Part shown: piece by piece, positions 9,087-27,741 of the stretch
Layout of the letters: every line of letters begins with the position of its first letter
Numbering within the stretch: the stretch's first letter is position 1
Virus record (IMG/VR): IMGVR_UViG_3300020042_006211
Span: 1-28,999 of that record
From: a virus
Taxonomy: Duplodnaviria; Caudoviricetes
DNA: 28,999 nucleotides
Direction: 5' to 3' (one strand)
The notes under the pieces: generated by a model
The model's database searches: none
What the model was told of the DNA's origin: nothing
Seen by the model: the letters and a program-made list of their open reading frames with translations, nothing else
Program-made: the position numbers and the translations under genes

Positions 9087-10909
9087 CCGCTAAAGCCAAG
9101 CCCGCGCCGCGCATTAGTTACGACAACTTTGCGTTGCCTCCCGGTTACGAGCCGTGGCATCTGTGTTTAACCAAGTTTGGACTTGGTAAAGGCGAGGAAA
9201 AACTAAAATGGTTTAAGCGTCTTGTTACTGAGCTTTGGCCAGAACCGCTATTCATGTGGGACAGGTGGAGCGACCTGTTCTTTGGCGCGTTGTGCGGTGC
9301 AAAGGAAACTGTTGAACAAACTATTGGCGCAAAGATTGAATCCGATTATCCGTGGTGGGAGCAATTAACAGCCACAGGAGCGGCGGGAACGGGCAAAAGC
9401 TCTAGGGCCGCGCTGTGGGTTCTTTGCAACTGGCTGTGCGCTCGCGAGCATACAACCTGTATGTTGACCTCAACCAGCGTCACTGCGCTTAAGCAGCGTA
9501 TCTGGAGCGAACTGGTGGATTGGATACAGAAGTGTAAGCAGCCATTGTCTGACCCCACGATTGGCTGGCTACAAATTGTGCCATCCGACACCATTATTCG
9601 GTGGAGTGGTGAGGATACAAAAAGCGCCATCTTTGGGCGTGCAGTCGATCAAGGTGGTTCTGTGGATAATGCGGTTGGGCGCATCAAAGGTATTCACAAC
9701 CGTCGCGTGTTTGTTGTGACGGATGAAATGACGGCTATGCCCGAGGCTATTGCCAAGGCGTGTCGCAACTTGGATTCTGGCACAATGGAGTTTCAGTTTA
9801 TCGGACTAGGCAACGCCACTGACTATTCTGATCAGCATGGAATTTACTGTGAGCCTGTGGACGGATGGAACAGCGTTACGGTGAATGACGAGTTCTGGTT
9901 GACCAAGCTGGGCGGTTGTTGCGTGCATTTGGATGGTCACAAGTCGCCATCATTAGATAATCCGGCCAAGTATCATTTTTACATCGGACGCAAAAAGCTG
10001 GAAAAAGATGCGCGCTTCTTTGGTGGCGAGAACACCCCTGACTACTGGCGCGAGTGCCGAGGCTTTTGGGCACCGTCTGGATTGTCCACAACGGTCATGG
10101 ATGCGTTCCTGCTATCACAGTTCAATACCGCTGACAAAGCTGTGTGGAAGGCTCGCTGGGAGATGGGCGCTGGCTTTGACGTAGCGTTTGAGGGCGGTGA
10201 CAGGCGCGTGCTTTATCCGTTCAAGTTTGGCGAGTTTGCCAGCGGCGTTAAAGGCATTGAGTTTCAAGCCCCGGTCATTGTGAACATCGACATGACGCAG
10301 GACAAACGCTTCATCCATTACGGCATTGCTGCTGCCGTGGAAGAGACATGCCGGAACTACAAGATTGACGGCAAGCCGCATCCAATCCTGCCCCACAACC
10401 TGGCGTGTGACGTAACAGGCGAGGGCGCAGGTCCGTTCGGCATTATGTCTGGAAGCTGGTCACGCGACATTATTCCGGTGGAGTTCGGTGGCGCAGCGGA
10501 AAAGACGGCGGTATCCGCAGACCGACCAACAACGTGGCATGAGCTTTACGGAAACAAAGTGACGGAAATCTGGTATTCAATGCGTCGATTTATTGAAGGC
10601 GGACAAGTGAGAGGGCTTACCGACGCTGACACAATACGCGAGTTGACTTCCCGCGATTACGTCCGTAAGAACAACAAGACCCATGTGCTGCCCAAGAGCG
10701 AGATGAAGAAGCTCAAGTCTCGCAGTCCCGATTTGGCGGATGCAGCTTGCATTGCCGCCTTTGTGCTTCGCAAAAAGGGGATTATGCCAGCAAGCGTAGC
10801 GGACAATGTGGTGATAGACTCAAGCGCATGGAACGCGGCTGCTGAGAAAATGAACATGGAAGGAAACGAATCAGACTACGAAGATTCAACTTCGGCTTTT
10901 GCAATATGA
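9083..10909 (+). CDS. terL: Terminase large subunit
   Basis: Walker A GAAGTGKS, Walker B VFVVTDE, coupling motif GLGN, RNase H-like nuclease motifs GFDVA..GGD and SPDLADA; lies upstream of the portal. Confidence 0.92.
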   Translation: MTAKAKPAPRISYDNFALPPGYEPWHLCLTKFGLGKGEEKLKWFKRLVTELWPEPLFMWDRWSDLFFGALCGAKETVEQTIGAKIESDYPWWEQLTATGAAGTGKSSRAALWVLCNWLCAREHTTCMLTSTSVTALKQRIWSELVDWIQKCKQPLSDPTIGWLQIVPSDTIIRWSGEDTKSAIFGRAVDQGGSVDNAVGRIKGIHNRRVFVVTDEMTAMPEAIAKACRNLDSGTMEFQFIGLGNATDYSDQHGIYCEPVDGWNSVTVNDEFWLTKLGGCCVHLDGHKSPSLDNPAKYHFYIGRKKLEKDARFFGGENTPDYWRECRGFWAPSGLSTTVMDAFLLSQFNTADKAVWKARWEMGAGFDVAFEGGDRRVLYPFKFGEFASGVKGIEFQAPVIVNIDMTQDKRFIHYGIAAAVEETCRNYKIDGKPHPILPHNLACDVTGEGAGPFGIMSGSWSRDIIPVEFGGAAEKTAVSADRPTTWHELYGNKVTEIWYSMRRFIEGGQVRGLTDADTIRELTSRDYVRKNNKTHVLPKSEMKKLKSRSPDLADAACIAAFVLRKKGIMPASVADNVVIDSSAWNAAAEKMNMEGNESDYEDSTSAFAI

Positions 10910-11541
10910 ACGAGATGACGCTAACCAACAAAACAATGGTGCCGCCTGGGGGATACCCGTTTAAACATCCAGCTACCGGCCACAATTTCAACAGTGGCAC
11001 ATACTCCCTCTTGCTTGGGCAGGTTCGTGACTACTGCACCGCCAACGGTTTCCCGCCAATTGACGAGCTAGACATTGAGCAATACATCTGCGAGCAGCTT
11101 GGAGCAAAGACCGCTCGCCGTTTTTGTTCTGGTGACGGCATTTCGGTTGACGGAGTTGATTTAGACTGGCGCGATATATGGAACGGCACAAAGGTTATGG
11201 CGTCATTTATTGCTGGTGGACGCCAAACTGTGGATCGCGCCGAGGCCGAACGACGTGCCGCTATATGTTTCTTGTGCAGCCGAAACGCTAAATACTCTAG
11301 GCCATGTGGAGGAGACTGCACAGAGCTTGCGGAACTGATTGTTTCCGTTGTTGGCGGTGAAGGAACATCCATAGATTTGGACCTCCACGCCTGTTCGGTG
11401 TGCAAATGCAGCAACAAAGCACAGGTCTGGGTGCCGATTGAGCATCTAAAACGTGGCGTTACACCGGAAATGATGGGGCTTTTCCCACAAAAATGTTGGA
11501 AAAAACAAGAAATTGATGCGCTGGACGCAGAAACAAATTGA
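10906..11541 (+). CDS. Cys-rich hypothetical protein, probably Zn-binding (211 aa)
   Basis: CFLC, CGGDC, CSVCKC and KCW clusters; ATGA-coupled to terL. Confidence 0.75.
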   Translation: MNEMTLTNKTMVPPGGYPFKHPATGHNFNSGTYSLLLGQVRDYCTANGFPPIDELDIEQYICEQLGAKTARRFCSGDGISVDGVDLDWRDIWNGTKVMASFIAGGRQTVDRAEAERRAAICFLCSRNAKYSRPCGGDCTELAELIVSVVGGEGTSIDLDLHACSVCKCSNKAQVWVPIEHLKRGVTPEMMGLFPQKCWKKQEIDALDAETN

Positions 11542-14210: not shown

Positions 14211-15365
14211 ATGAGTACCACCATTGCAGAAACATCGCCAGCCGAAACCAAATCAAGTCCGTTTAGTGCGGCATTAGAAAATGCGTTTAAAGGAGATAAC
14301 GCTTTGCCTGTTGAAACCGAAAGCCCATCACAGGAACCAGTTAAGGTTGCAAAGGAAAGCTCCAAGTCGGTTCCTGACGCTTTGTTCAAAAGGCCCGACT
14401 CCGATACCCGATCCGTTGAAGAATCGTTGCCAGAAAAAACTGCTGCGGATGAAATTGCCGAGCCGCCAAAACTGGATGCCAAGGGCAAAGCTGGCTGGGA
14501 GGCATTGAAGAAAACAGCGCGAGAAGAATCCACCAAACGGGCGGAACTAGAACGGCAAATTGAAGATTGGAAATCCAAAGGCCGCGATCCTGAGACACTG
14601 GAAAAACACCTTTCCGAGCGCGACAAAAGAATTGCTGACTACGAAGAGCGTGTTGCTCGCGTTGATTTGGAGCTTACAGAGAGCTTCAAGCGAGACATCA
14701 TTGAACCGCGCCAAAAGGAAATTGGTAAAGCCAAGGCGCTTGCGGATGAGATGGAAGTCAATCCAGACGAAATGAGTTCTGCTCTTAACTTGAGGGGCAA
14801 GGCTCGTTCTAATGCGCTTCGTGAAATGGGAATTGATCCTGATGGCGGTCGCATTAGCCGTATCATGGACAACCTGGACGAACTCCATGATCGTGCCGAG
14901 TATGATCGTGCAAATGCCAAGCAAGCTCTGGAATACCGCATTGAACGCGAGCGACTGGATAAGCTGTCCGAGCATGGCGAGTTTGTAAAAACCAAGTTCT
15001 TGCAATTTGATGACATGACCAAACGGATGCGATCAAAGCTGGAAATCCTAAATCAAGTAGATGGGCATGAGGACTGGAACACCAAGTCAAGGGGGGTCGT
15101 AGAAAGCGCACGCGCCTACATTCAAGACAATCCTTATGCCGATGTAGAAGCGGTAATTGAGGCGAAATCCATGCCAGTATATCGCGAACTGTTTCTGGAA
15201 ACCCGCGAGCGTGAGGCTGCGCTGGAATCCAGGGTGGCAGAAATGGAGAAGGAGTTGAAAGCCATTCATGGACGCTCGCCCTCTCTGACGCAACGAGGAC
15301 AGGCGGCAACCACTGGCAATTCAAAACCGTTTAGCTCTATGATCGCGGAGGCGTTTGGACAATGA
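14211..15365 (+). CDS. Capsid scaffolding-like protein (384 aa)
   Basis: Acidic disordered N-terminus, long E/K/R coiled coils and a short C-terminal amphipathic helix; lies between portal and capsid. Confidence 0.7.
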   Translation: MSTTIAETSPAETKSSPFSAALENAFKGDNALPVETESPSQEPVKVAKESSKSVPDALFKRPDSDTRSVEESLPEKTAADEIAEPPKLDAKGKAGWEALKKTAREESTKRAELERQIEDWKSKGRDPETLEKHLSERDKRIADYEERVARVDLELTESFKRDIIEPRQKEIGKAKALADEMEVNPDEMSSALNLRGKARSNALREMGIDPDGGRISRIMDNLDELHDRAEYDRANAKQALEYRIERERLDKLSEHGEFVKTKFLQFDDMTKRMRSKLEILNQVDGHEDWNTKSRGVVESARAYIQDNPYADVEAVIEAKSMPVYRELFLETREREAALESRVAEMEKELKAIHGRSPSLTQRGQAATTGNSKPFSSMIAEAFGQ

Positions 15366-16279
15366 TTCTTGTCATTGCGTTCTGTCATAAAGACAAAGCA
15401 AAAGCCGTTCGTCTTGCCAACTGGATTGCAGAGTTGGGTGGCACTAACAAACATGATCTTTTGCTTGGGTATCACGAAGACACCACACCGGACCCAATTC
15501 ACGAAATCCTTAAGCCCCACTTCAACCACGTTGGCGGATTCAAGATCAGCGACTCGGAGACAAACTATCCTGCAATTGCCAATATCATGTGGCATGAGTG
15601 TTTGAAAACCGTTGCAGATCAATTTAATGTCCCGTGGTTTTGGATGGAGCCAGACGCCGTTCCGTTGACACCGGATTGGCTAGACAAAATTGAGGACGAG
15701 TATCTTAAGGCCAAGAAGCCCTTTATGCTTGATCGCGTAATTACGCCAACACGCTCACACAACAGCGGCGTTGGAGTGTATCCTGGCAGAGTGCGCGACT
15801 ACACTACGCGCCTGTGGGAGCTTTCAAACATGCCGTGGGACGTGTTTCTGGCCGAAGATATCACGCCGTTTACACATCACACAGAACTAATTCACGACAA
15901 ATTCTATCGTGTTTGGGACGACCCTGACAGCGGGCCTCCAGTTTTTCCTGACGCTAATTCTCTTTCCATTATTGAACCAAGTGCCGTGTTGTTTCATCGA
16001 AACAAGGACGGCAGCTTGATTGAACGTCTTCGCGAATCGCGGGGTAGTGTAAGTGTAACACACCCCGTTCTCATCGGCGGGGAGATTGCCGGTGCAACCC
16101 CGGCCCCCGCAACTGTTGATGTTGCCGCAATGCTTCGTCAAATCGCTGAATTGCAGGAAAAGCTAAAAGCGCAAACTGTAACAACTCCGGTTACAGATGG
16201 AAAAAAGCAGCGCACGCCAACGCAGATTCAAGCCGCAAAAGACCGCATGGCAAAAGCGCGAGCAGGGAGAAAACCGTGA
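15362..16279 (+). CDS. GT-A-like glycosyltransferase with a C-terminal coiled-coil/basic extension
   Basis: N-terminal beta strand ILVIAF, DXD-like motif WFWMEPDAVP, SGVGVYP, PWD and C-terminal LFH.NKD. Confidence 0.6.
   Translation: MILVIAFCHKDKAKAVRLANWIAELGGTNKHDLLLGYHEDTTPDPIHEILKPHFNHVGGFKISDSETNYPAIANIMWHECLKTVADQFNVPWFWMEPDAVPLTPDWLDKIEDEYLKAKKPFMLDRVITPTRSHNSGVGVYPGRVRDYTTRLWELSNMPWDVFLAEDITPFTHHTELIHDKFYRVWDDPDSGPPVFPDANSLSIIEPSAVLFHRNKDGSLIERLRESRGSVSVTHPVLIGGEIAGATPAPATVDVAAMLRQIAELQEKLKAQTVTTPVTDGKKQRTPTQIQAAKDRMAKARAGRKP
16038..16112 (+). tRNA. Initiator-tRNA(Met)-like cloverleaf embedded in a CDS (pseudo-tRNA or tRNA-like element)
   Basis: Acceptor C-GCGGGG/CCCCGC-A with a C1:A72 mismatch and A discriminator; D arm GTGT-AAGTGTA-ACAC; anticodon arm CCCCG..CTCAT..CGGGG, 3 nt longer than canonical; variable loop AGATT; T arm GCCGG-TGCAACC-CCGGC; no encoded CCA. 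Confidence 0.7.
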
Positions 16280-16965
16280 ACTGCGACATCTTCATTCGTA
16301 GCTACGAAAAGGATTTCGAGTGGCTAAAATACTGCCTTCGTTCAATCCAGAGATTTGCTACCGGATTTAGAAACGTAATTGTGGTGGTTCCAAATGGGCA
16401 AACGCCACCAACCGGACCAGTCGAAAAGGTTTTCTATGTCCATGAAGGATGCGATGGATACATGCACCAGCAACTAACCAAGCTGCACGCGGACTGCTTT
16501 TCCGACGCCGAGGTGTTTCTGTTTATGGACAGTGATACCATATTCACTCGGCCAATTTCGGCCCGTAATGCGTTTGATTCGTGGCTCTACACACCATACT
16601 CCAGTCTAAATGATCCAAACACGATGACATGGAGGAAGGTTGTGGAGAAAGCCATCGGAGTATTTCCAGAATACGAGTTCATGCGAAGGCATCCGTTGAG
16701 CGTCCAGAAATGGATGCTGCAAGGATTGCGCGACTTCTTTTGGCAGAAACACGGCATGAGCTTGGAAAGCTACATCATAGCGCAGCCGGGCCATGAGTTC
16801 AGCGAGTGGAATGTCATCGGAGCGTGGCTGTGGTATTTTCATCGCAGCAAGGTGCAATGGCAGAACACCGACGAGAAATTGGGAGTTCCGTTTGTCCATC
16901 AGTCGTATTCTTGGGGTGGACTCAACGATGATATTCGCAAGAACCTAGAGGCGGCGCTGGCATGA
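16276..16965 (+). CDS. GT-A fold glycosyltransferase-like protein (DUF6492-like)
   Basis: DIFIRSY..D, CLRSI, GY..QQL.KL, DXD motif FMDSD and FSEWN..G. Confidence 0.7.
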   Translation: MNCDIFIRSYEKDFEWLKYCLRSIQRFATGFRNVIVVVPNGQTPPTGPVEKVFYVHEGCDGYMHQQLTKLHADCFSDAEVFLFMDSDTIFTRPISARNAFDSWLYTPYSSLNDPNTMTWRKVVEKAIGVFPEYEFMRRHPLSVQKWMLQGLRDFFWQKHGMSLESYIIAQPGHEFSEWNVIGAWLWYFHRSKVQWQNTDEKLGVPFVHQSYSWGGLNDDIRKNLEAALA

Positions 16966-17687
16966 GCAATGTGCTTGTGCTTGTTCTAAGTTCTCGCCGC
17001 GAACCGTGGGGCGATCTGATGGATGTCTCACTGGCAACGTGGGATGCTGACCCCCATCCTGATGTGCAGACGCTTTACTACTGCGCCCACGGCAGCAATC
17101 AGCTTATCCGTGACAATGTGCGCTATTCGGCAATGGAAGATTCTTTGGAGAATATCAGCCCACGCACTTTAGAAGCGTTTGGATGGGCGCTGGAACTGCC
17201 GGATTGGAAGTATTTGGCGCGACCTAACTCAAGCTGCTACGTCCATAAGGGTAATCTAGCCAAGCATTGCGACACGTTGCCGGAGACGGACGTATTGCGA
17301 GGTGCATGGGCTGGCGGTGATTCCGCCAATCCGTCTGTTGGATTTCTATGGGGAGGCGGTCAATACATCATATCGCGTGATGTTGTGGAGCGAATGGTCA
17401 AAGCCGGGGCTGGGTGGAAGAACGGACTCATGGATGACGAGGCCATAACGGACTGCGCCAAAGGGGTTGGGATTTCAATGAATCAAGGGTGCGTCTTTGC
17501 TACGATTAATGATCAGTTTGAGGGGAAGTGGTTGTGCATGTGTTACGGGCTTGGTGAACCGTTTACATTTACCGACTTTGCCGACTTGAAAAAAGCCGAT
17601 GGGCATTTCTTCTTTCGCGTAAAGCAAGATCATAATAGGCGGCTAGATGAGAAGCTGATGCGGGAGCTAAAGAAGAACCTGCCATGA
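16962..17687 (+). CDS. Glycosyltransferase, GT31/galactosyltransferase-like
   Basis: VLVLVLSS start, YLARPNSSCYV, F..GGG.YIISRDVV and DD.AI motifs resemble GT31-like enzymes. Confidence 0.65.
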   Translation: MSNVLVLVLSSRREPWGDLMDVSLATWDADPHPDVQTLYYCAHGSNQLIRDNVRYSAMEDSLENISPRTLEAFGWALELPDWKYLARPNSSCYVHKGNLAKHCDTLPETDVLRGAWAGGDSANPSVGFLWGGGQYIISRDVVERMVKAGAGWKNGLMDDEAITDCAKGVGISMNQGCVFATINDQFEGKWLCMCYGLGEPFTFTDFADLKKADGHFFFRVKQDHNRRLDEKLMRELKKNLP

Positions 17688-18442
17688 TCTACACCTTTGA
17701 CACCAAGCGGGCGCAACTGCGGGATGGATTCTATCAGACCGGCAGCGGGCCGCGTTGTGTGTTGATTGTCGGTTCCTGCCGGACAATGGCGTTCTTAAAC
17801 TATCTTGCAGCGTGGAATGAGGTAAGCGGAAACAGTTTTACAATCCGTTATATTAACCCGTTTGACTGGCACTGGAACGCAGCAGACGAACTGGTGGACT
17901 TAGAGAAGGCAATTGATGCTCTAGAAATTAACAGCGGAATCCTTGGCGTAATAGGCGATACTGAGATATTCATTCACGAACACTACGGAAACTACGGGAT
18001 GTTCAATACGTCAAGAGACGCTGCAAAGAATATCTATCAGTTCGGAATGAACGCGAACACGGACATTGGTATTCCAAACTTTCACGATCACTTCATTCTC
18101 TACAACGATTTTGCGGCGTTCGGTGAAGTGCCAGAGGATTGGAAAGAGCGTGGGTTAGCGGCAGTCGATAAGTTCTGTGACCTCTGCGCTAAGACCAGTT
18201 TTCCAGAGATGGCTGAATACTTCCGAAACAACTGGCAAAACATGCGCTTGTTCTGGACTCCAAACCATACCAGCGGGGCGTTTACACTTTACCTGTTTCG
18301 CAGGATGAATGACGTGTTCCTACATCTTCCACTAGACAATGATTTCTGGCAGCGGATTGGTGGTGACGATATGTTCCGCGATCCACATACTCCCGTTCAT
18401 CAAAAGGACATCGAAGCATACAAACTTACATGGAATCACTAG
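17684..18442 (+). CDS. WcbI-like polysaccharide biosynthesis protein (putative O-acetyltransferase)
   Basis: N-terminal VLIVGSCR (compare G-N-C-Q) and C-terminal RLFWTPNH (compare LF.T.NHP) motifs. Confidence 0.55.
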   Translation: MIYTFDTKRAQLRDGFYQTGSGPRCVLIVGSCRTMAFLNYLAAWNEVSGNSFTIRYINPFDWHWNAADELVDLEKAIDALEINSGILGVIGDTEIFIHEHYGNYGMFNTSRDAAKNIYQFGMNANTDIGIPNFHDHFILYNDFAAFGEVPEDWKERGLAAVDKFCDLCAKTSFPEMAEYFRNNWQNMRLFWTPNHTSGAFTLYLFRRMNDVFLHLPLDNDFWQRIGGDDMFRDPHTPVHQKDIEAYKLTWNH

Positions 18443-18984
18443 CCAACATATTTACGCGCATTGGACATTTCGGAAGCGATGCTGGTCATAATGACAAAGG
18501 ATCAACTCATTCCTACATTGAATCATACGAGCGTTTGTTTTCGCCGTATCGGGAATTTGCCGACGTTCTAGAAATTGGACTGGCATCAGGAAAGTCACTG
18601 GACTTGTGGGGTGAATACTTTGGACCCAAAAGCACTATAACCGGTGTGGACATTTCCGTGGTGTTTGACACGTCGCGATTCCAACCACCGCGATTTAATG
18701 TGATCCAGGCAGATGCAACAAGCCAAGCGGCTATTGTTGCGCTTGGTCAAGCAAAGTTCGACATCATCATTGATGACGGAAGCCACATGCAAGCCGACCA
18801 AGAGGCAGCGTTTCGCTTGCTATCACCGCGAGTCAAGGAAGGTGGTCTTTACATTATTGAAGACATCCTTAGTCCCGAATCTAGCGTCCCATCGCTCCGC
18901 ACACTTCATCCAAACTGCGAGGTAATTGATCTGCGAGGAGTGAAGGGACGGTTTGATGACATGCTGTTGGTTTATCGTTTTTAA
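18430..18984 (+). CDS. Class I SAM-dependent methyltransferase, sugar O-methyltransferase-like
   Basis: DK...HSY...Y, VLEIG...G.S, GVDI, FDIIIDDGSH and GGLYIIED motifs, as in MycE-like sugar O-methyltransferases. Confidence 0.85.
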   Translation: MESLANIFTRIGHFGSDAGHNDKGSTHSYIESYERLFSPYREFADVLEIGLASGKSLDLWGEYFGPKSTITGVDISVVFDTSRFQPPRFNVIQADATSQAAIVALGQAKFDIIIDDGSHMQADQEAAFRLLSPRVKEGGLYIIEDILSPESSVPSLRTLHPNCEVIDLRGVKGRFDDMLLVYRF

Positions 18985-18986
18985 TT

Positions 18987-19664
18987 ATGAAAATGCTCGT
19001 CACAGGAAAAAGCGGGTTTGTAGGTCGTCACGTTGTCCGCGAGTTGGAAAGCCGTGATGTCGAGATTGTGCCAGACTTCACCGACCGTCCCGAGGCGGTG
19101 ATCCATCTCGGCTGGGGGCATCTTCCTAACTACGAATCATATCTACATTCGGCGCAGGTCCAGTGGCATCACGGATTTCTAAGCGCGGTCATCGGAGACG
19201 GCATCACGAACATTACCGCAGCGGGAAGCTGCTTGGAGTTGGTGGACGATCCTCCGGTTTATGGACTTGCCAAGATTAGCGTCCGCGACGGTTTGTTGTG
19301 GCGGCTCCCTACGGCCAAGTGGGTTCGGTTCTGGAATGTCTATGGGCCAGGGCAACGCGAAGAATGCTTGCTGCCGAGTCTTCGGCGCGCAATGGAGCGT
19401 GGAGACGAATCTTTCCAAGTCATTGACGGGATGCGCGATTTCATCCCTGTTCAGGATGCGGCAAAGCGGCTAGTGGATATTGCGCTGCAAGAAGAGGAGT
19501 CTGGCGTATTCGATTGCGGAAGCGGAACCGCCGTTCCAGTGATTGATTTTTGCCGCAAATTTACAGGTGATAGCACGATCCGACTAGAAACAGGATACCC
19601 AATGCCGTCCTACGAACCAAAAGTGTTTTCAATCCGCAACCGCAATGAACACGGCGATAGATAG
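18987..19664 (+). CDS. NAD-dependent epimerase/dehydratase family protein (NDP-4-keto-sugar reductase-like)
   Basis: VTGKSGFVG Rossmann motif, HLGW..LPNY, catalytic YGLAK, R..NVYGPGQ and RDFIPV.D. Confidence 0.85.
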   Translation: MKMLVTGKSGFVGRHVVRELESRDVEIVPDFTDRPEAVIHLGWGHLPNYESYLHSAQVQWHHGFLSAVIGDGITNITAAGSCLELVDDPPVYGLAKISVRDGLLWRLPTAKWVRFWNVYGPGQREECLLPSLRRAMERGDESFQVIDGMRDFIPVQDAAKRLVDIALQEEESGVFDCGSGTAVPVIDFCRKFTGDSTIRLETGYPMPSYEPKVFSIRNRNEHGDR

Positions 19665-20802
19665 ATGTTTGTGCTGCGAGGGGGCGCTGGTTCCTCTGGT
19701 AAACTTTGGGCGGATGCCGTTGGTAAATACCTACGGCGTGACAGAAAAGTTTCCGTTGGCGGTCAACCGCTGCAAGGTCTGCTGCCATTTGCAATTGTCG
19801 GAGGCGGTTGATCCGCTGGTGCTTTACAGTGATTACGCCTACTGCTCTGGAACTGGAAAAACCGCATTGGACTTCTTTTCAGGGTTTGCTCGCACGGCGT
19901 TGTCCTACGTTCCAAATGCCAAACGGGTTCTAGACATTGCCAGCAATGACGGGAGCCAGTTGGATGCGTTTAAGTCGCTTGGGCTTTCAACGTCGGGAGT
20001 TGACCCGGCAGAAAATCTGGCAGGAATTGCCGCAGCCAAAGGGCATCTCATTCGCATTTCGCTTTTTGAAGATGTTAAATTCCAGTCAAACGAGACATTT
20101 GACATCATCACCGCGCAGAATGTGGTGGCGCACACGCACCGGCCAGTGGAGTTCCTGTCCCGATGCGCGGACATTATGCACAAGGAGTCGCGGCTGTTTG
20201 TCGCCACTTCGCAGGCAAACATGGTGGTGTTGGGCGAGTGCGACACGATCTACCACGAACACGTCAGCTACTTCAATGCGGGGTCCATGATGCGCCTGGC
20301 CGAACGTGCTGGGTTGCGACTGCTGGACATTGTGATGAACGACATCCACGGCACCAGCTACGTTTTTGTGCTTGGAATCGCTGGCGAGCCGTCCGTCCGT
20401 GTAGCGCAACGGATGCAATGGGAGAATGCGGTGGGGCTGACTAGACCGGGGCTCTACAGATGGTGGAAAACCCATATCGCAGAGAAGATCGAGCGGCTGG
20501 GCAGGACGATTGACGGATTCAAGAAGGATGGATTCTTCACTGTTGGTTGCGGGGCGGCGGCAAAAGGCATTTCCATGCTGAACATGGCATGGGTAAAATT
20601 GGACGTGCTGGCCGACAACACGCCGACAAAACATTACAAGGTGACGAGCGGGATGCTGATTATGCCGTTTGACGAGATTGCCAATCTAAAAGAACCAAAG
20701 GTGTTGTTCGTTGTGCTGGCGTGGAATGTGGGCGTGGAGATTCGCCGCAACGTGGAGAAATTGCGAAGCAGGGCGGAAGATGTGTTTATTGAGATTCGCT
20801 AA
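19645..20802 (+). CDS. NDP-hexose C-methyltransferase (Zn-binding, TcaB9/NovU-like)
   Basis: N-terminal CLCC and CKVC Zn motif, VLDIASNDGS, DTIYHEHVSYF, IHGTS, GAAAKG and VLAWN. Confidence 0.9.
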   Translation: MNTAIDRCLCCEGALVPLVNFGRMPLVNTYGVTEKFPLAVNRCKVCCHLQLSEAVDPLVLYSDYAYCSGTGKTALDFFSGFARTALSYVPNAKRVLDIASNDGSQLDAFKSLGLSTSGVDPAENLAGIAAAKGHLIRISLFEDVKFQSNETFDIITAQNVVAHTHRPVEFLSRCADIMHKESRLFVATSQANMVVLGECDTIYHEHVSYFNAGSMMRLAERAGLRLLDIVMNDIHGTSYVFVLGIAGEPSVRVAQRMQWENAVGLTRPGLYRWWKTHIAEKIERLGRTIDGFKKDGFFTVGCGAAAKGISMLNMAWVKLDVLADNTPTKHYKVTSGMLIMPFDEIANLKEPKVLFVVLAWNVGVEIRRNVEKLRSRAEDVFIEIR

Positions 20803-20810
20803 AATAACAT

Positions 20811-20841
20811 TTGACGTTTTTACGGAACCACCGTAGAAACC
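20811..20841 (+). promoter_or_regulatory. Putative capsid-gene promoter with TTACG-N7-CGTAG palindrome
   Basis: TTGACG-17 nt-TAGAAA preceded by an A/T-rich stretch; mirrors the motif upstream of the portal. Confidence 0.6.
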
Positions 20842-20995: not shown

Positions 20996-22246
20996 ATGGC
21001 CTGTCCCAATCCGTTTGCAGCAATTCAAATCGCTACCGAGCATCTCGGCAGCGAAATCTATGGTATCCCCACTCCGGCGACACCTTACTTTAACTTCGTC
21101 GAACGCGGCGTGTTTCCTCGAAACATGGGCGTTACGATGTCAACCTTCATCGCTGGCCGCGTCGAGCCTGACAGCAAATCTGCTGGCTGGTCTGCCGTTA
21201 CCTTGGACAGCGCGGGCTCCGGTTCCACCGGCCCGTCCATTACTGGCGGCATCTGCGCGGACAGCTTCACTTCTGTCCCTGTTGGATTTGATACGCTGCA
21301 ATACTCGCCCCGTAAGCTCCAGCTTCAGGGACCGTCTATTTGCCGCGATACGCTTAGTTTCGCGCATCAGCCCACGAAGTTCATCCAGCAGCACTACATC
21401 CCGTCTCTTGCCCACTATGTGAAGCGCAAGATCGATTTGGAGTTCCGCGACCAGATCATCAAGTTCTCGAACAAGATGTCGCTGGCGGCTGGTGGATTCT
21501 CCAACGTCGTCACCGCATCTACCAATCCGACCATCAAGCCAACTTCGCAGTTGAACTGGACTTGGCTGGACGGCGTGGCTGTTCGTCTTATTGGCGACGG
21601 TGCTGCCAACGCAGACGGCGAAGAGATTGAGATGGGGCCAGACGGTCCTGTGTTCCCGGCCTTCATCGGCCTGGAGGCTCTCAATCGCCTGTTCCAGAAC
21701 GGTTCGGCTTCTTCGCCCAACGCCTTCCGGCAGGACTTCCAGTATGCCGACTCGGGCAAAGGCGCAATGGCTCAGACTCTGAAATCCATTGGCGCTTCCC
21801 GGCAGATCAAAAACTTCCGGTTTGCTCCGGTTGTGAATCCTCCGCGCTTTACCTACAACAACTCTATCCTTGTTGAAGTTGAGCAGTTTGAGTTCACCGC
21901 AGCTACGCACGGACAGAAATCCGTTGAAACCAGCGCGTATCAGAACGCCGAATACGAAGCTATCGTCATTCCGCATCGTCGCCAGTTCAAGGCGGACATC
22001 CTGACTCCTGACTACGCCGGGCTTGATTATGAGCCGTCTATGTGGACGGGCGATTGGAAGTTCATCACTGGCGGCGAGCGTATCGTATCCAACAACGTGT
22101 GCTTTGATCCTCTGCACAAGTTTGGCGCGCACTTTGCCGAGTTCATCTACGCACCGGAACCGATCCACACCAACTACGGCTGGGTTCTCTTCTATAAGCG
22201 TTGCCAGAACGATCAGTCGCTTACGGTCTGCACCAGCGGTCTGTAA
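20996..22246 (+). CDS. Major capsid protein (416 aa)
   Basis: Size, strong codon bias (many C-ending codons), own promoter, downstream strong terminator and head-module position. Start moved from 20924 to the ATG at 20996 (MACPNPF), which follows an A/T-rich tract. Confidence 0.8.
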   Translation: MACPNPFAAIQIATEHLGSEIYGIPTPATPYFNFVERGVFPRNMGVTMSTFIAGRVEPDSKSAGWSAVTLDSAGSGSTGPSITGGICADSFTSVPVGFDTLQYSPRKLQLQGPSICRDTLSFAHQPTKFIQQHYIPSLAHYVKRKIDLEFRDQIIKFSNKMSLAAGGFSNVVTASTNPTIKPTSQLNWTWLDGVAVRLIGDGAANADGEEIEMGPDGPVFPAFIGLEALNRLFQNGSASSPNAFRQDFQYADSGKGAMAQTLKSIGASRQIKNFRFAPVVNPPRFTYNNSILVEVEQFEFTAATHGQKSVETSAYQNAEYEAIVIPHRRQFKADILTPDYAGLDYEPSMWTGDWKFITGGERIVSNNVCFDPLHKFGAHFAEFIYAPEPIHTNYGWVLFYKRCQNDQSLTVCTSGL

Positions 22247-22266
22247 ACAAAACCAACCCTCAACCG

Positions 22267-22297
22267 GGGCGTCCTGCGAAAGCGGGACGCCCTTTTT
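22267..22297 (+). terminator. Rho-independent terminator after the capsid gene
   Basis: GGGCGTCCTGC-GAAA-GCGGGACGCCC-TTTTT: 11-bp stem with one G:U pair and a GNRA loop. Confidence 0.9.
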
Positions 22298-22309: not shown

Positions 22310-23743
22310 ATGGCGAATATTACCGTAACGCTCTATTGGGACATGGACCTTCGCAAGTGGACAACCACTTTAGGAGGCACCACAGAGACAGACCCAATTC
22401 AAGGGCTGGTCCAAGGCGACATCGTAAAATTTGCAGTGCGCTTTGTGCAAACTGGAGTGGCGGTGGTATTGGCTGCACCGGTCTTTACGGCATCTGGAAT
22501 AAAAGCTGACAACGACTTTACGGGCAGCTACCTGATCCAGCTTTCGGCACCTGTGTTGAGCAACACCACGCTCTACACGTTCACGGTAAACCCGCTCAAC
22601 AGCGCGCAACTGAACACGTTCTTGCAGACGTATCGCAATACATGGTGCGCGCTGGAAATCTACGACTCGGTCAACGGCATCCTGACAACTCCGCTAGAAC
22701 TGCAAATCATGCCAGGCTACAGCCTGAGCGGAACGCCAACGGACAATGTGGCTGGCGTTATTGTAGTCGCAGCAGGGAAGACAGTCACCTTCCCGCAAAG
22801 CCTGACCTTTCCCAGCGCACTCGGCACAAACGGCTTCCAGCTTACGACAGACGGCGCAGGCGCGTTGACTTGGGCGGCGGGAACAGATGCACCCGGTGGC
22901 AGCACGACTCAGGTGCAATACAACAACGCGGGATTGTTTGCAGGAATCACAGGCGCAACTACAAACGGCACCGCGTTGACGCTTGTTGCTCCGGTGCTGG
23001 GAGCAGCCACGGCGACTTCCATCAATGGCATCACGATCTCGGCGGGAGGCTCTGGCACGCTCACGATGCTTGGAAACATAGACACCAGCGCAAGCGGCTT
23101 CATCAACACCAACACAAGCGGCGGAAGCATAAACACTCAAAACAGCGGCGGCTACATCAGCACCTCTCACAGCGGAGGATCGATCAACACTAGCCAAGCT
23201 GGCGGAAGCATTGACACACGTAACACCGGAAGCATTGAATTTGGCTACGCCGGGACGCGCACTACCTTTCGCGGAAATGCTGCTTCTAGCGACAAGACCA
23301 TTGACCTTCCAAACGTCACCGGAACCGTCGCAGTAGCAGCCACCAGCGCAACCGCCACGCAGGCGTTGTTCGCAACGGCGACAGCAGGCGCACCTGCCTA
23401 TCGTGCGATAGCCTCGGCAGACATCGCCACCGCGCTGCTCACACCGGGACCCATCGGCGGGACTACCGCAGGCTCGGGTGCGTTTACGACGTTGACGGCT
23501 AGCAGCACGCTAGCAGTCAGCTCAACGACTACTATGACCGGACGGCTTACGGCCAACGGCGGCATCACTGTTGTCGGTGGATCATTTTTACTGACCACGA
23601 ATAGCGCACTGAACGGAACTAGTGGCAGCAATACTGCAACGCTTACCAACTCACCGGGCTCCGGTAACCCAGCAAAGTGGATAGCTATTGAAGACAACGG
23701 AACAGCAAGATATATACCAACTTGGGAACTAGATCCTCCTTAA
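22310..23743 (+). CDS. Tail fibre/virion appendage protein (477 aa)
   Basis: Globular N-terminal attachment-like domain, then G/T/S/A-rich fibre motifs (PGGSTTQVQYNNAG, IGGTT..GAFTTL) and 9-aa GGSINT repeats. Confidence 0.7.
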   Translation: MANITVTLYWDMDLRKWTTTLGGTTETDPIQGLVQGDIVKFAVRFVQTGVAVVLAAPVFTASGIKADNDFTGSYLIQLSAPVLSNTTLYTFTVNPLNSAQLNTFLQTYRNTWCALEIYDSVNGILTTPLELQIMPGYSLSGTPTDNVAGVIVVAAGKTVTFPQSLTFPSALGTNGFQLTTDGAGALTWAAGTDAPGGSTTQVQYNNAGLFAGITGATTNGTALTLVAPVLGAATATSINGITISAGGSGTLTMLGNIDTSASGFINTNTSGGSINTQNSGGYISTSHSGGSINTSQAGGSIDTRNTGSIEFGYAGTRTTFRGNAASSDKTIDLPNVTGTVAVAATSATATQALFATATAGAPAYRAIASADIATALLTPGPIGGTTAGSGAFTTLTASSTLAVSSTTTMTGRLTANGGITVVGGSFLLTTNSALNGTSGSNTATLTNSPGSGNPAKWIAIEDNGTARYIPTWELDPP

Positions 23744-24611: not shown

Positions 24612-24751
24612 AAATCCTACTCGCCATGCTCTGCCTCACCCTAACCGGCTGCGCCGTGGATTACACCACGAAGACCGGAGGCAGGTTCCGCTTTGAGCTG
24701 ACCGGCTCGCCCACGGAATATATCGAAGCCGGACGTTCCTACCGCAAATGA
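24608..24751 (+). CDS. Small lipoprotein (47 aa), o-spanin candidate; absent from the ORF track
   Basis: MKILLAMLCLTLTG-CAVDY... contains the lipobox LTGC; ATGA overlaps at both ends. Confidence 0.7.
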   Translation: MKILLAMLCLTLTGCAVDYTTKTGGRFRFELTGSPTEYIEAGRSYRK

Positions 24752-25233
24752 AAACCCTCGCAGAAAAACTTGTAGCTTTAACCCGACCCGAAATCGGCGT
24801 CGAAGAAGTTGACGGCACGAACTGCGGCGTTCGCGTTGATGCCTACAAGTCTGCGACCAACCTGCCGCCGCATGAGGCATGGCCGTGGTGCGCCGCTTTC
24901 GTTTGCTGGCTCGTCCGAGAGGCAATGCGTGATGGTGGACCTTACACCTTCGCTCGTCCGACCACTGCGGGCGCGTGGGACTTTGAGAATTGGTCGCTGA
25001 AGCAAGACGACTCGACACATACTCTACGCAACCCCGGCCGTAACATCGCTCCCGGCGACATCGTGATCTTCAAGTTCTCTCACATCGGCATTTGCTTGCG
25101 AGGACCAGAGGCTGGACGCATCCGCACGGTGGAAGGCAACACCGACGCCGCAGGCTTACGCGAGGGCGGTGGAGTATTCGAGAAATCTCGTTCTCTGGAC
25201 AGCATCAAAACCCGCATCCGCTTTACCGTGTGA
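24748..25233 (+). CDS. CHAP-domain endolysin
   Basis: PWCAAFVCW (catalytic Cys), PGDIVIF, HIGI (catalytic His) and TVEGNT. Confidence 0.9.
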   Translation: MKTLAEKLVALTRPEIGVEEVDGTNCGVRVDAYKSATNLPPHEAWPWCAAFVCWLVREAMRDGGPYTFARPTTAGAWDFENWSLKQDDSTHTLRNPGRNIAPGDIVIFKFSHIGICLRGPEAGRIRTVEGNTDAAGLREGGGVFEKSRSLDSIKTRIRFTV

Positions 25234-27022: not shown

Positions 27023-27265
27023 ATGGCATACGAAATGAAAGAAAACAGCGGCTCGATGTTCGTGAATACGAAGAAAGAGAAAGACACGCATCCCGACAGG
27101 AACGGAACCGCGCTTATCGGCGGTGTCGAATATTACGTTTCTGGATGGATCAAAGAAACCAAGTCAGGTGACAAGTGGCTGTCGCTTGCGTTCAAACCCA
27201 AGGAGCAAGCACTTAGCAAGCCGCCGTCCTTTAGCAAGGATGACGAGGACCAAATTCCCTTCTGA
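27023..27265 (+). CDS. Small ssDNA-binding-like protein (DUF736-like) with SSB-type acidic tail
   Basis: G.MF.N..K..DTHPD..G, SGW.K..K.G.K.LSL pattern and C-terminal DDEDQIPF; adjacent to ERF. Confidence 0.7.
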   Translation: MAYEMKENSGSMFVNTKKEKDTHPDRNGTALIGGVEYYVSGWIKETKSGDKWLSLAFKPKEQALSKPPSFSKDDEDQIPF

Positions 27266-27741
27266 TGCAGCGATCCGAATCAATCGCCGCTCTTGCTGCT
27301 GCGCTTTCCAAGGCACAAGCAGCAATGGGTGCAGCTAAGAAAGACAGCACCAACCCGCACTTCAAGTCACGTTATGCAGACCTAGCTTCTATTTGGGACG
27401 CATGCCGCGAGCCGCTGACGAAAAACGGACTGGCCATCGTGCAACTGCCAGGAAAAGATGAGGCAGGCTACTACGTAGAGACTTTGCTGACTCATGCTAG
27501 CGGTGAGTTCATCGGCGAGAAGCTGCACATCGTCCCGACCAAGGACGATCCGCAGGGACTCGGCAGTGCAATCACCTACGCTCGACGCTACGGCCTTTCG
27601 GCTGTCGCTGGTATCGCACCAGATGACGATGATGCCGAGGCAGCTATGGGTCGCACTGACGTTCGCCGTGAGCAGTCAGCAAGAGCGGTCGTGCAAGGCA
27701 AGCCACAGCCAATCGGAAAGTCTTCACAGGAAGACTTCTAA
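27265..27741 (+). CDS. erf: ERF-family ssDNA annealing protein
   Basis: KDSTNPHFKSRYADL, L...GL...Q, T.L.H.SGE and PQGLGSAITYARRYGL..DDDA motifs. Confidence 0.92.
   Translation: MQRSESIAALAAALSKAQAAMGAAKKDSTNPHFKSRYADLASIWDACREPLTKNGLAIVQLPGKDEAGYYVETLLTHASGEFIGEKLHIVPTKDDPQGLGSAITYARRYGLSAVAGIAPDDDDAEAAMGRTDVRREQSARAVVQGKPQPIGKSSQEDF

Follow-up and report, generated by a model that had tools for sequence, protein, structure and literature searches.

The described system closest to the one considered here is that of the cluster O mycobacteriophages, in which, according to one report, an O-methyltransferase gene and three transferase genes are located between those for portal and protease (PMC4351075), and in which, as two further reports relate second-hand, such enzymes glycosylate the capsid and the tail tube (PMC11600133, PMC12619734). 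As far as our literature search reached, the virion glycosylation that has been shown in tailed phages rests on mycobacteriophages. The present work concerns a stretch of 28,999 nucleotides from a virus of the Caudoviricetes (IMG/VR record IMGVR_UViG_3300020042_006211, positions 1 to 28,999; hereafter the window), a single 29-kb contig of an uncultured freshwater phage with all of its main genes on the + strand, and in particular seven consecutive genes, C1 to C7, that lie between the predicted scaffold and predicted capsid genes. Judged from sequence, these genes form an exchangeable cassette of sugar enzymes in a predicted head-assembly operon, and the best reading of the cassette by analogy is virion glycosylation as in the cluster O mycobacteriophages, which would here be extended by a branched sugar made by the phage.

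The likeness to cluster O (Corndog gp35-38) is the placement of transferases and an O-methyltransferase inside the head module, which in the window is assigned by gene order, and the concept of phage-encoded virion glycosylation is already known from that precedent. The window differs in having a new family of GT-A-fold glycosyltransferases with a Stealth-like partner, phage-encoded tailoring of a branched sugar by a C-methyltransferase and a short-chain dehydrogenase/reductase (SDR), cassette exchange across the phage family and a tRNA-like RNA nested in C1, all of which we regard as new, and also in having a WcbI-like gene. A tblastn search of 50,697 GenBank phages, run with C1 and not with C2-C7, gave no match at E 0.01, and the capsid protein has no sequence match among the same phages. 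Our literature search, in which subscription journals are mostly uncovered, returned no match for C-methyltransferase glycan pathways in phages, Stealth enzymes in phage capsid modules or tRNAs nested in phage genes. Giant-virus capsid glycosylation offers a more remote comparison: the GT-A structure 2p6w matches C1 (Z 12.0), but at 9% identity, so that only the fold is shared, and the virus studied here is a bacterial virus of about 52 kb. The chlorovirus A64R-type system is one that we take to combine virus-encoded transferases with methyltransferases.

The cassette consists of seven open reading frames (ORFs) on the + strand, whose spacing from the scaffold-C1 junction through C6-C7 is -4, -4, -4, -4, -13, +2 and -20 nucleotides, with the scaffold stop codon sharing an ATGA overlap with the start of C1. 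The close coupling of the seven genes and their start on the scaffold stop, as described in an earlier note on this DNA, are borne out in coordinates and overlaps, and of 11 loci from close relatives with capsid identities of 87-100%, 8 have all the genes intact and unchanged in order. Cassette content nevertheless differs between phages with capsid proteins that share 87-98% identity with the one in the window. In relative L005 a second C3 paralogue replaces C4; in L008 and L010 the genes C1, C2 and C4 are kept and the rest are replaced by a 162-aa methyltransferase-like gene and a 251-aa ORF without assigned function, so that C3, C6 and C7 have been lost together in this lineage. Relative L012, at 68% capsid identity, carries C1, C2, C3, C4, a different methyltransferase, a 231-aa gene, C6, C7 and an HNH gene, and at 33-38% capsid identity C1 is found between the portal and scaffold genes in nine loci.

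A survey centred on C1, in which a head gene was sought within the fetched flank of 66 loci that reduce to 29 non-redundant groups, found a terminase, portal, scaffold or capsid gene near C1 in 22 of the groups, in several different slots. The neighbours of C1 include GT2, GT4, GT32 and PLOD-GT glycosyltransferases, FkbM and other methyltransferases, a sulfotransferase and WcbI; most of the 68 neighbouring proteins scanned in one survey of C1 loci were without a match. The earlier note had suggested surveying synteny for variable sugar cassettes, and across relatives the head-module slot does carry variable sets of sugar enzymes.

C1 (15362-16279, +) is, by its predicted structure, a GT-A glycosyltransferase. 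It has a glycosyltransferase (GT) domain at residues 1-226, followed by a disordered linker, a coiled coil and a basic C-terminal helix. The AlphaFold2 (AF2) model, built from 86 sequences, has a predicted local distance difference test score (pLDDT) of 90.5, with residues 233-246 disordered, and is matched by GT-A enzymes at Z 13.5-14.9, in agreement with Foldseek. The residues E96, D98, G136, D160 and H212 are invariant, and we take E96-x-D98, G136, D160 and H212 to be the DxD-type, G-loop, xED-type and C-His motifs. C1 itself has no Pfam match, and its profile has no sequence match in the PDB. There are 183 homologues, and 63 of the 120 listed show two domain matches, mostly as tandem duplications. 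The family is enriched in viruses: the nearest Atlas clusters are 94-100% viral, and only four matches were found in the 185,579 prokaryote genomes of GTDB, in unrelated bins, which are probably phage contigs binned with cells. One C1 copy, 98% identical, lies on a 34-kb contig of an Actinomycetes metagenome-assembled genome (L255, 10001-10915), probably also a binned phage contig and not evidence for a host. Of the 57 homologues no longer than 400 aa, 55 have a C-terminal tail rich in Lys and Arg, with an RMAKARA-like helix in 39.

The earlier note had counted three GT-A-like glycosyltransferases in the cassette, and this holds for C1 by its predicted fold but needs revision for C2 and C3. 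C2 (16276-16965, +), which is often fused to C1, appears to be a DUF6492/Stealth-like nucleotide-sugar transferase. Among 24 members of its family, 22 match DUF6492 and 8 match Stealth_CR2; all Stealth_CR2 scores for the window C2 itself fall below the cut-off (23.4 bits against 39.4). Its profile matches the GlcNAc-1-phosphotransferase GNPTAB over positions 12-184 (E 2.9e-4), and it keeps an invariant DSD where GNPTAB has NDD. These matches suggest that C2 may be a transferase of sugar-1-phosphate; DUF6492 nonetheless matches more members than does Stealth. The profiles of C1 and C2 are unrelated by hhalign, and fusions of C1 with C2, or of C1, C2 and FkbM, occur in several lineages. C3 (16962-17687, +) is a GT31-like GT-A protein according to weak matches (Galactosyl_T, E 0.004; C1GalT1, E 0.079), in which the position of the DxD motif is occupied by RPNSS or RVNAS in all eight aligned members and the other GT31-like motifs align weakly.

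C4 (17684-18442, +) appears weakly to be a distant relative of WcbI, as first proposed: 28 of 30 Atlas matches fall in the WcbI set, and, of 84 homologues found, 35 were scanned and 9 of these match PF18588, one of them above the cut-off; C4 itself has no direct PF18588 match, and direct BLAST against a Pfam-positive WcbI protein is not significant. Its role is presumably that of a putative acyltransferase. The calls made for the last three genes are upheld by Pfam and PDB matches. C5 (18430-18984, +) matches PF13578 above the cut-off and resembles in sequence the O-methyltransferases of macrolide sugars (PDB 3ssm, E 4.6e-14; demethylmacrocin O-methyltransferase 8ia9, E 1.4e-13). C6 (18987-19664, +) is a short extended-SDR reductase or epimerase of nucleoside diphosphate (NDP) sugars, with PF01370 at E 8e-11, the motifs GKSGFVG, AGSCLE and YGLAK, and PDB matches to both epimerases and reductases, among which we infer a reductase role. 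C7 (19645-20802, +) belongs to the Zn-binding NDP-hexose 3-C-methyltransferases (PF08421, PF13489 and PF08484; D-mycarose 3-C-methyltransferase 4rv9, E 2.2e-40; TcaB9, E 1.7e-26), with a Zn domain, an S-adenosylmethionine (SAM) domain and a C-terminal domain homologous to those of solved members. It shares with 4rv9 and TcaB9 the three-domain architecture, the N-terminal cysteines, the IYHEH motif and a neighbouring SDR; it differs in being encoded by a phage, with no dehydratase or nucleotidyltransferase alongside.

On balance we lean towards the view that the cassette would build a methylated glycan on the virion proteins of the phage itself, the candidate acceptors being the predicted major capsid protein (416 aa; 20996-22246, +) and, as a second candidate, a putative fibre-like protein rich in Ser/Thr (26%; 22310-23743, +), whose length in relatives ranges from 477 to 704 aa. 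The order and coupling of the genes, their enzyme kinships, the exchange of cassettes and the nested tRNA-like fold are observed; the pathway is proposed from them. Initiation of the glycan, on capsid or fibre, would fall to C1 and C2, the conserved core, which stand side by side or are fused throughout the family; C2 may add a sugar-1-phosphate. C7 would methylate a host-made NDP-4-keto-6-deoxyhexose at its 3-carbon, C6 would reduce the C4 carbon position of the methylated sugar, and the branched sugar would be transferred by C3, a gene that one lineage has lost along with C6 and C7. C5 would add O-methyl groups and the C4 protein acyl groups. Swapping of the accessory genes would then change the surface glycan between strains.

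The virion-glycosylation interpretation had been proposed in the earlier note, and synteny across the family, cassette exchange, the cluster O precedent and the lack of hydroxymethylase-type and integrase genes in three complete family genomes speak for it; the possible phosphotransferase role of C2 and the loci with C1 outside the head module do not fit it as readily. Several observations weigh against it. The joint loss of C3, C6 and C7 is a single event, since L008 and L010 carry the same variant. In seven relatives at about 36% capsid identity the stretch from terminase to capsid lacks C1, which makes C1 accessory; no head gene lies near C1 in 7 of the 29 groups; and in the complete genome G004 C1 stands at the end of an operon on the opposite strand. 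The cassette has no dehydratase or nucleotidyltransferase gene, so that the sugar precursor must come from the host. The basic tail of C1 could fit DNA or membrane binding as well as docking to the capsid, and the capsid protein owes its putative name to gene order and not to a fold.

If the enzymes instead modified the host envelope (lipopolysaccharide, capsule or S-layer glycan), masking the receptor and excluding other phages while the basic helix held C1 to the membrane, then the kinship of the WcbI-like C4, the Stealth-like C2 and the FkbM partners with cell-surface polysaccharide families would be accounted for, as would the basic tail in nearly all C1 homologues and the position of C1 outside the head operon in some genomes. 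We consider this unlikely, in view of the translational coupling of the cassette to the late head operon and of its composition, seven soluble-looking enzymes without a flippase or polymerase; moreover, no tyrosine integrase was found in four viral records and no gene of the GtrA type was seen among 118 proteins of three complete genomes, and thus there is no sign of the lysogenic state in which conversion pays. The same basic tail, rich in Lys and Arg and conserved, could bind DNA if the cassette served to hypermodify the phage genome with sugars before packaging as armour against restriction. Phages also build NDP-sugars for DNA, and hypermodification is a late step before packaging that can use such sugars (PMC13326640); the presence of cassette genes beside terminase and portal would agree with this. 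However, the thymidylate-synthase family (PF00303) is found in none of four family genomes, three of them complete, and no TET/JBP, GtrA, DNA polymerase or kinase has a Pfam match among 118 proteins of the three complete genomes, a scan that covered 118 of 126 otherwise unlabelled proteins from crude-script gene calls (the eight left out being slot genes or overlapping calls) and that, like the PF00303 search, could miss divergent partners, the window itself being a fragment. The observation in the earlier note that no DNA-modification partner or Gtr-type gene is visible holds in these family genomes too, and the missing partner genes disfavour DNA hypermodification and lysogenic conversion. 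The scan did turn up ordinary N6/N4 DNA methylases, in G001 and G004, and a further GT2 gene in G001. Those methylases, the normal course of sequencing and assembly of the genomes, and the match of the DNA-acting transferases listed in a paper on phage DNA hypermodification to enzymes that we take to be of the GT-B type also count against modification of DNA; we regard that fate as improbable.

It might finally be supposed that the genes share no product at all, and that the slot is just a hot spot for insertion, driven by a strong late promoter, in which passenger genes accumulate, as the HNH genes and unrelated small ORFs in the same slot of L012, L008, L009, L011 and L002 would allow. Yet a single pathway is favoured by the C1-C2 and C1-C2-FkbM fusions, by the intact catalytic motifs and by the way in which sugar enzymes have repeatedly taken one another's place, and we hold the passenger explanation to be very improbable.

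The cassette points to a form of virion glycosylation among environmental phages that is much wider and diversifies rapidly, and in which the phage would use a glycosyltransferase family of its own and tailor the sugar itself. The enzymes C1, C2, C3, C6 and C7 are small, soluble and directly assayable, and capsids shielded by glycans are relevant to phage therapy and to glyco-engineering. A more far-reaching version, which we put forward as a speculation that is probably wrong in at least some part, is that a widespread family of uncultured, podovirus-like phages of water and soil would wear a hypervariable, antigen-like coat of glycan or phosphoglycan, started by C1 and the Stealth-like transferase and tipped with a phage-made branched methyl sugar, and that the dose of C1 would be set by a tRNA-like element captured several times in frame. 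Branched methyl sugars of this sort are familiar from antibiotic pathways.

The tRNA-like element, which the gene-level reading in the earlier note had missed, was seen by ARAGORN as the only tRNA in the window (16038-16113, +). It is a cloverleaf that appears to derive from an initiator-like tRNA-Met(CAU), lies in frame at C1 codons 226-251, starts at the end of the GT domain and encodes the linker that is disordered in the AF2 model. The window copy has a C1:A72 mismatch, an extended anticodon arm, no encoded CCA, no D-loop GG and a non-canonical anticodon loop (not of 7 nucleotides), and it has no match to the Rfam tRNA family (RF00005), the cut-off of which is passed by two copies from relatives, at 69 bits in L152 and at 46.5 bits in L115. 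With default settings, 31 of the 32 tRNA calls made by ARAGORN over the window and 174 loci, many of which repeat the same contigs, are the nested element. It is present in 18 of 102 non-redundant C1 tails; a covariance model added two of another sequence type, and relaxed ARAGORN thresholds yielded no further C1-linked copy on the sense strand.

In nine distinct copies all 179 of 179 cells are paired and 12 of 20 pairs are changed on both sides, as against none of 500 shuffles as high and 38-55% in slid controls, although the copies were chosen as ARAGORN hits, a selection that favours pairing. Without the canonical L152 copy the figures are 159 of 159 cells and 9 of 20 covarying pairs. As the peptide diverges, compensatory changes preserve all the stem pairs: between L101 and the window the GT domain is 88% identical and the linker peptide 42%. 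The coding frame is free of stops in all nine copies, and one of the other frames has stops in all nine. CAU is kept in each of the nine aligned copies, in different codon phases, and therefore the ARAGORN label tRNA-Glu(CTC) was rejected as a register artefact. The 1:72 mismatch, a hallmark of initiator tRNAs, is present in eight of the nine and also in L199 and L252. In a quick tree of 74 C1 domains the eight carriers require at least four gains or losses, and three sequence types are seen. C1 homologues without a whole tRNA (P0105, P0106, P0155, P0167, P0195 and P0194) have linker peptides of the GSNP type, as from read-through of the T arm; the P0194 linker looks, at the peptide level, like another tRNA type.

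The closest published arrangement is found in Alphaproteobacteria, where selC lies inside the selB ORF and processing has been proposed to repress the full-length protein (PMC8124441). The two are alike in having a whole tRNA, in frame, towards the 3' end of an ORF whose sequence runs over the following start codon; here, in contrast, the element is of the Met type, belongs to a phage glycosyltransferase, stands between the catalytic domain and the basic tail, is partly degenerate and has been gained or lost several times. By this analogy the cloverleaf directly behind the catalytic domain of C1 would most likely be a processing site: cutting at it would release a small RNA and leave a C1 message without a stop codon, and processing would lower the amount of full-length C1 relative to scaffold and capsid. 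A tentative alternative, to which we give a lesser though appreciable weight, is that the element is a working or decoy initiator tRNA directed at host defences that cleave tRNAs, independent of the cassette, with the linker as a tolerant storage place. The retention of CAU across codon phases and, mostly, of the 1:72 mismatch, the repeated gains or losses in three sequence types, the two relatives that pass Rfam and the fact that the element is the only tRNA found in the complete genomes G001 and G004 all agree with such a role; decoding is unlikely in the window lineage, on account of the anticodon loop, the missing D-loop GG and CCA and the absent Rfam call. This alternative bears on the RNA alone and can hold whatever becomes of the glycan. 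The nested RNA clearly exemplifies a sequence constrained at once by its protein frame and by RNA structure, and it provides a testable model of gene-dosage tuning in a late operon.

The gene order in the window is a 2495-aa protein, the 608-aa terminase, a Cys-rich 211-aa protein, a 784-aa portal-like protein, a 91-aa protein, the 384-aa scaffold-like protein (14211-15365, +), C1-C7, the 416-aa capsid-like protein and the Ser/Thr-rich fibre-like protein. Of the head-gene names, gene order agrees with scaffold, portal and capsid, library and fold support does not extend to them, and the terminase is alone in having library confirmation (3 of 10 homologues match phrog_2). The family profiles of the capsid and portal proteins have no match in PDB, Pfam or PHROGs, and the single-sequence AF2 model of the capsid-like protein (pLDDT 29) was not used. 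The scaffold protein has no library match, so its name is predicted from its position and its conservation in relatives. Portal, scaffold and capsid are accordingly putative names that draw on size, conserved order, the GC content at third codon positions of the capsid gene (0.67), the downstream terminator and cover by RNA contigs; the capsid-like protein has 82 homologues. An SU10 adaptor match in a complete relative (E 3.1e-5) fits a short-tailed phage.

The capsid promoter at which the cassette had been said to end was not listed in a consensus promoter scan; a possible sigma70-like promoter, TTGACG-17-TAGAAA, was seen by eye before the capsid gene (20811-20839, +). A hairpin resembling an intrinsic terminator lies 3' of the capsid gene (22266-22293, +), and the counts of both scans are at chance level (9 promoters against 8.7 expected; 16 terminators against 15.4). 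The RNA evidence consists of assembled contigs from four RNA runs on fresh water, belonging to four studies, which indicate presence in RNA libraries, not level or timing. The capsid gene is covered in all four runs, and contigs also match pieces of C4/C5, C6 and C6/C7; none of the four runs has a contig over 15316-18283, and such contigs cannot rank expression or reveal tRNA processing. The contigs of three studies end at 22257-22258, near the hairpin, which is a weak hint of termination.

Several further observations concern the relatives. Small unrelated ORFs lie at the scaffold-C1 junction in L008 (5635-6188), L009 (3710-4390), L011 and L002 (4046-4369), and in L003 (2935-3215) one is inserted just before the scaffold gene. 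A gene of 418-448 aa follows the portal gene in ten C1 loci (for example L118, 5249-6589; L127, 11080-12336; L143, 4784-6130); it is ATP-grasp-like by eye, has no Pfam match in the one copy scanned, and is possibly a further virion-modifying ligase. The Cys-rich gene in the terminase-portal gap of the window (10906-11541) has no library match and is kept across most of the family, with 43 copies in one search. In one phage a sulfotransferase and WcbI lie between the terminase and this gene (L034, 2559-4045), and at the same slot of another stands a prepilin-type N-methylation (DUF1559) gene (L044, 4470-5456); we take DUF1559 genes to be common in Planctomycetes/PVC bacteria, a possible host hint. 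The complete relative G001 has its second GT2 gene on the opposite strand (L261, 11850-12584, -), and G001 and G003 each have a PAS-domain gene in the lysis region (L260, 3741-4412; L264, 14224-14637). In the window, the regions 24748-25233 and 27023-27741 hold ordinary genes for a CHAP-domain endolysin, a single-strand DNA-binding protein and an ERF recombinase.

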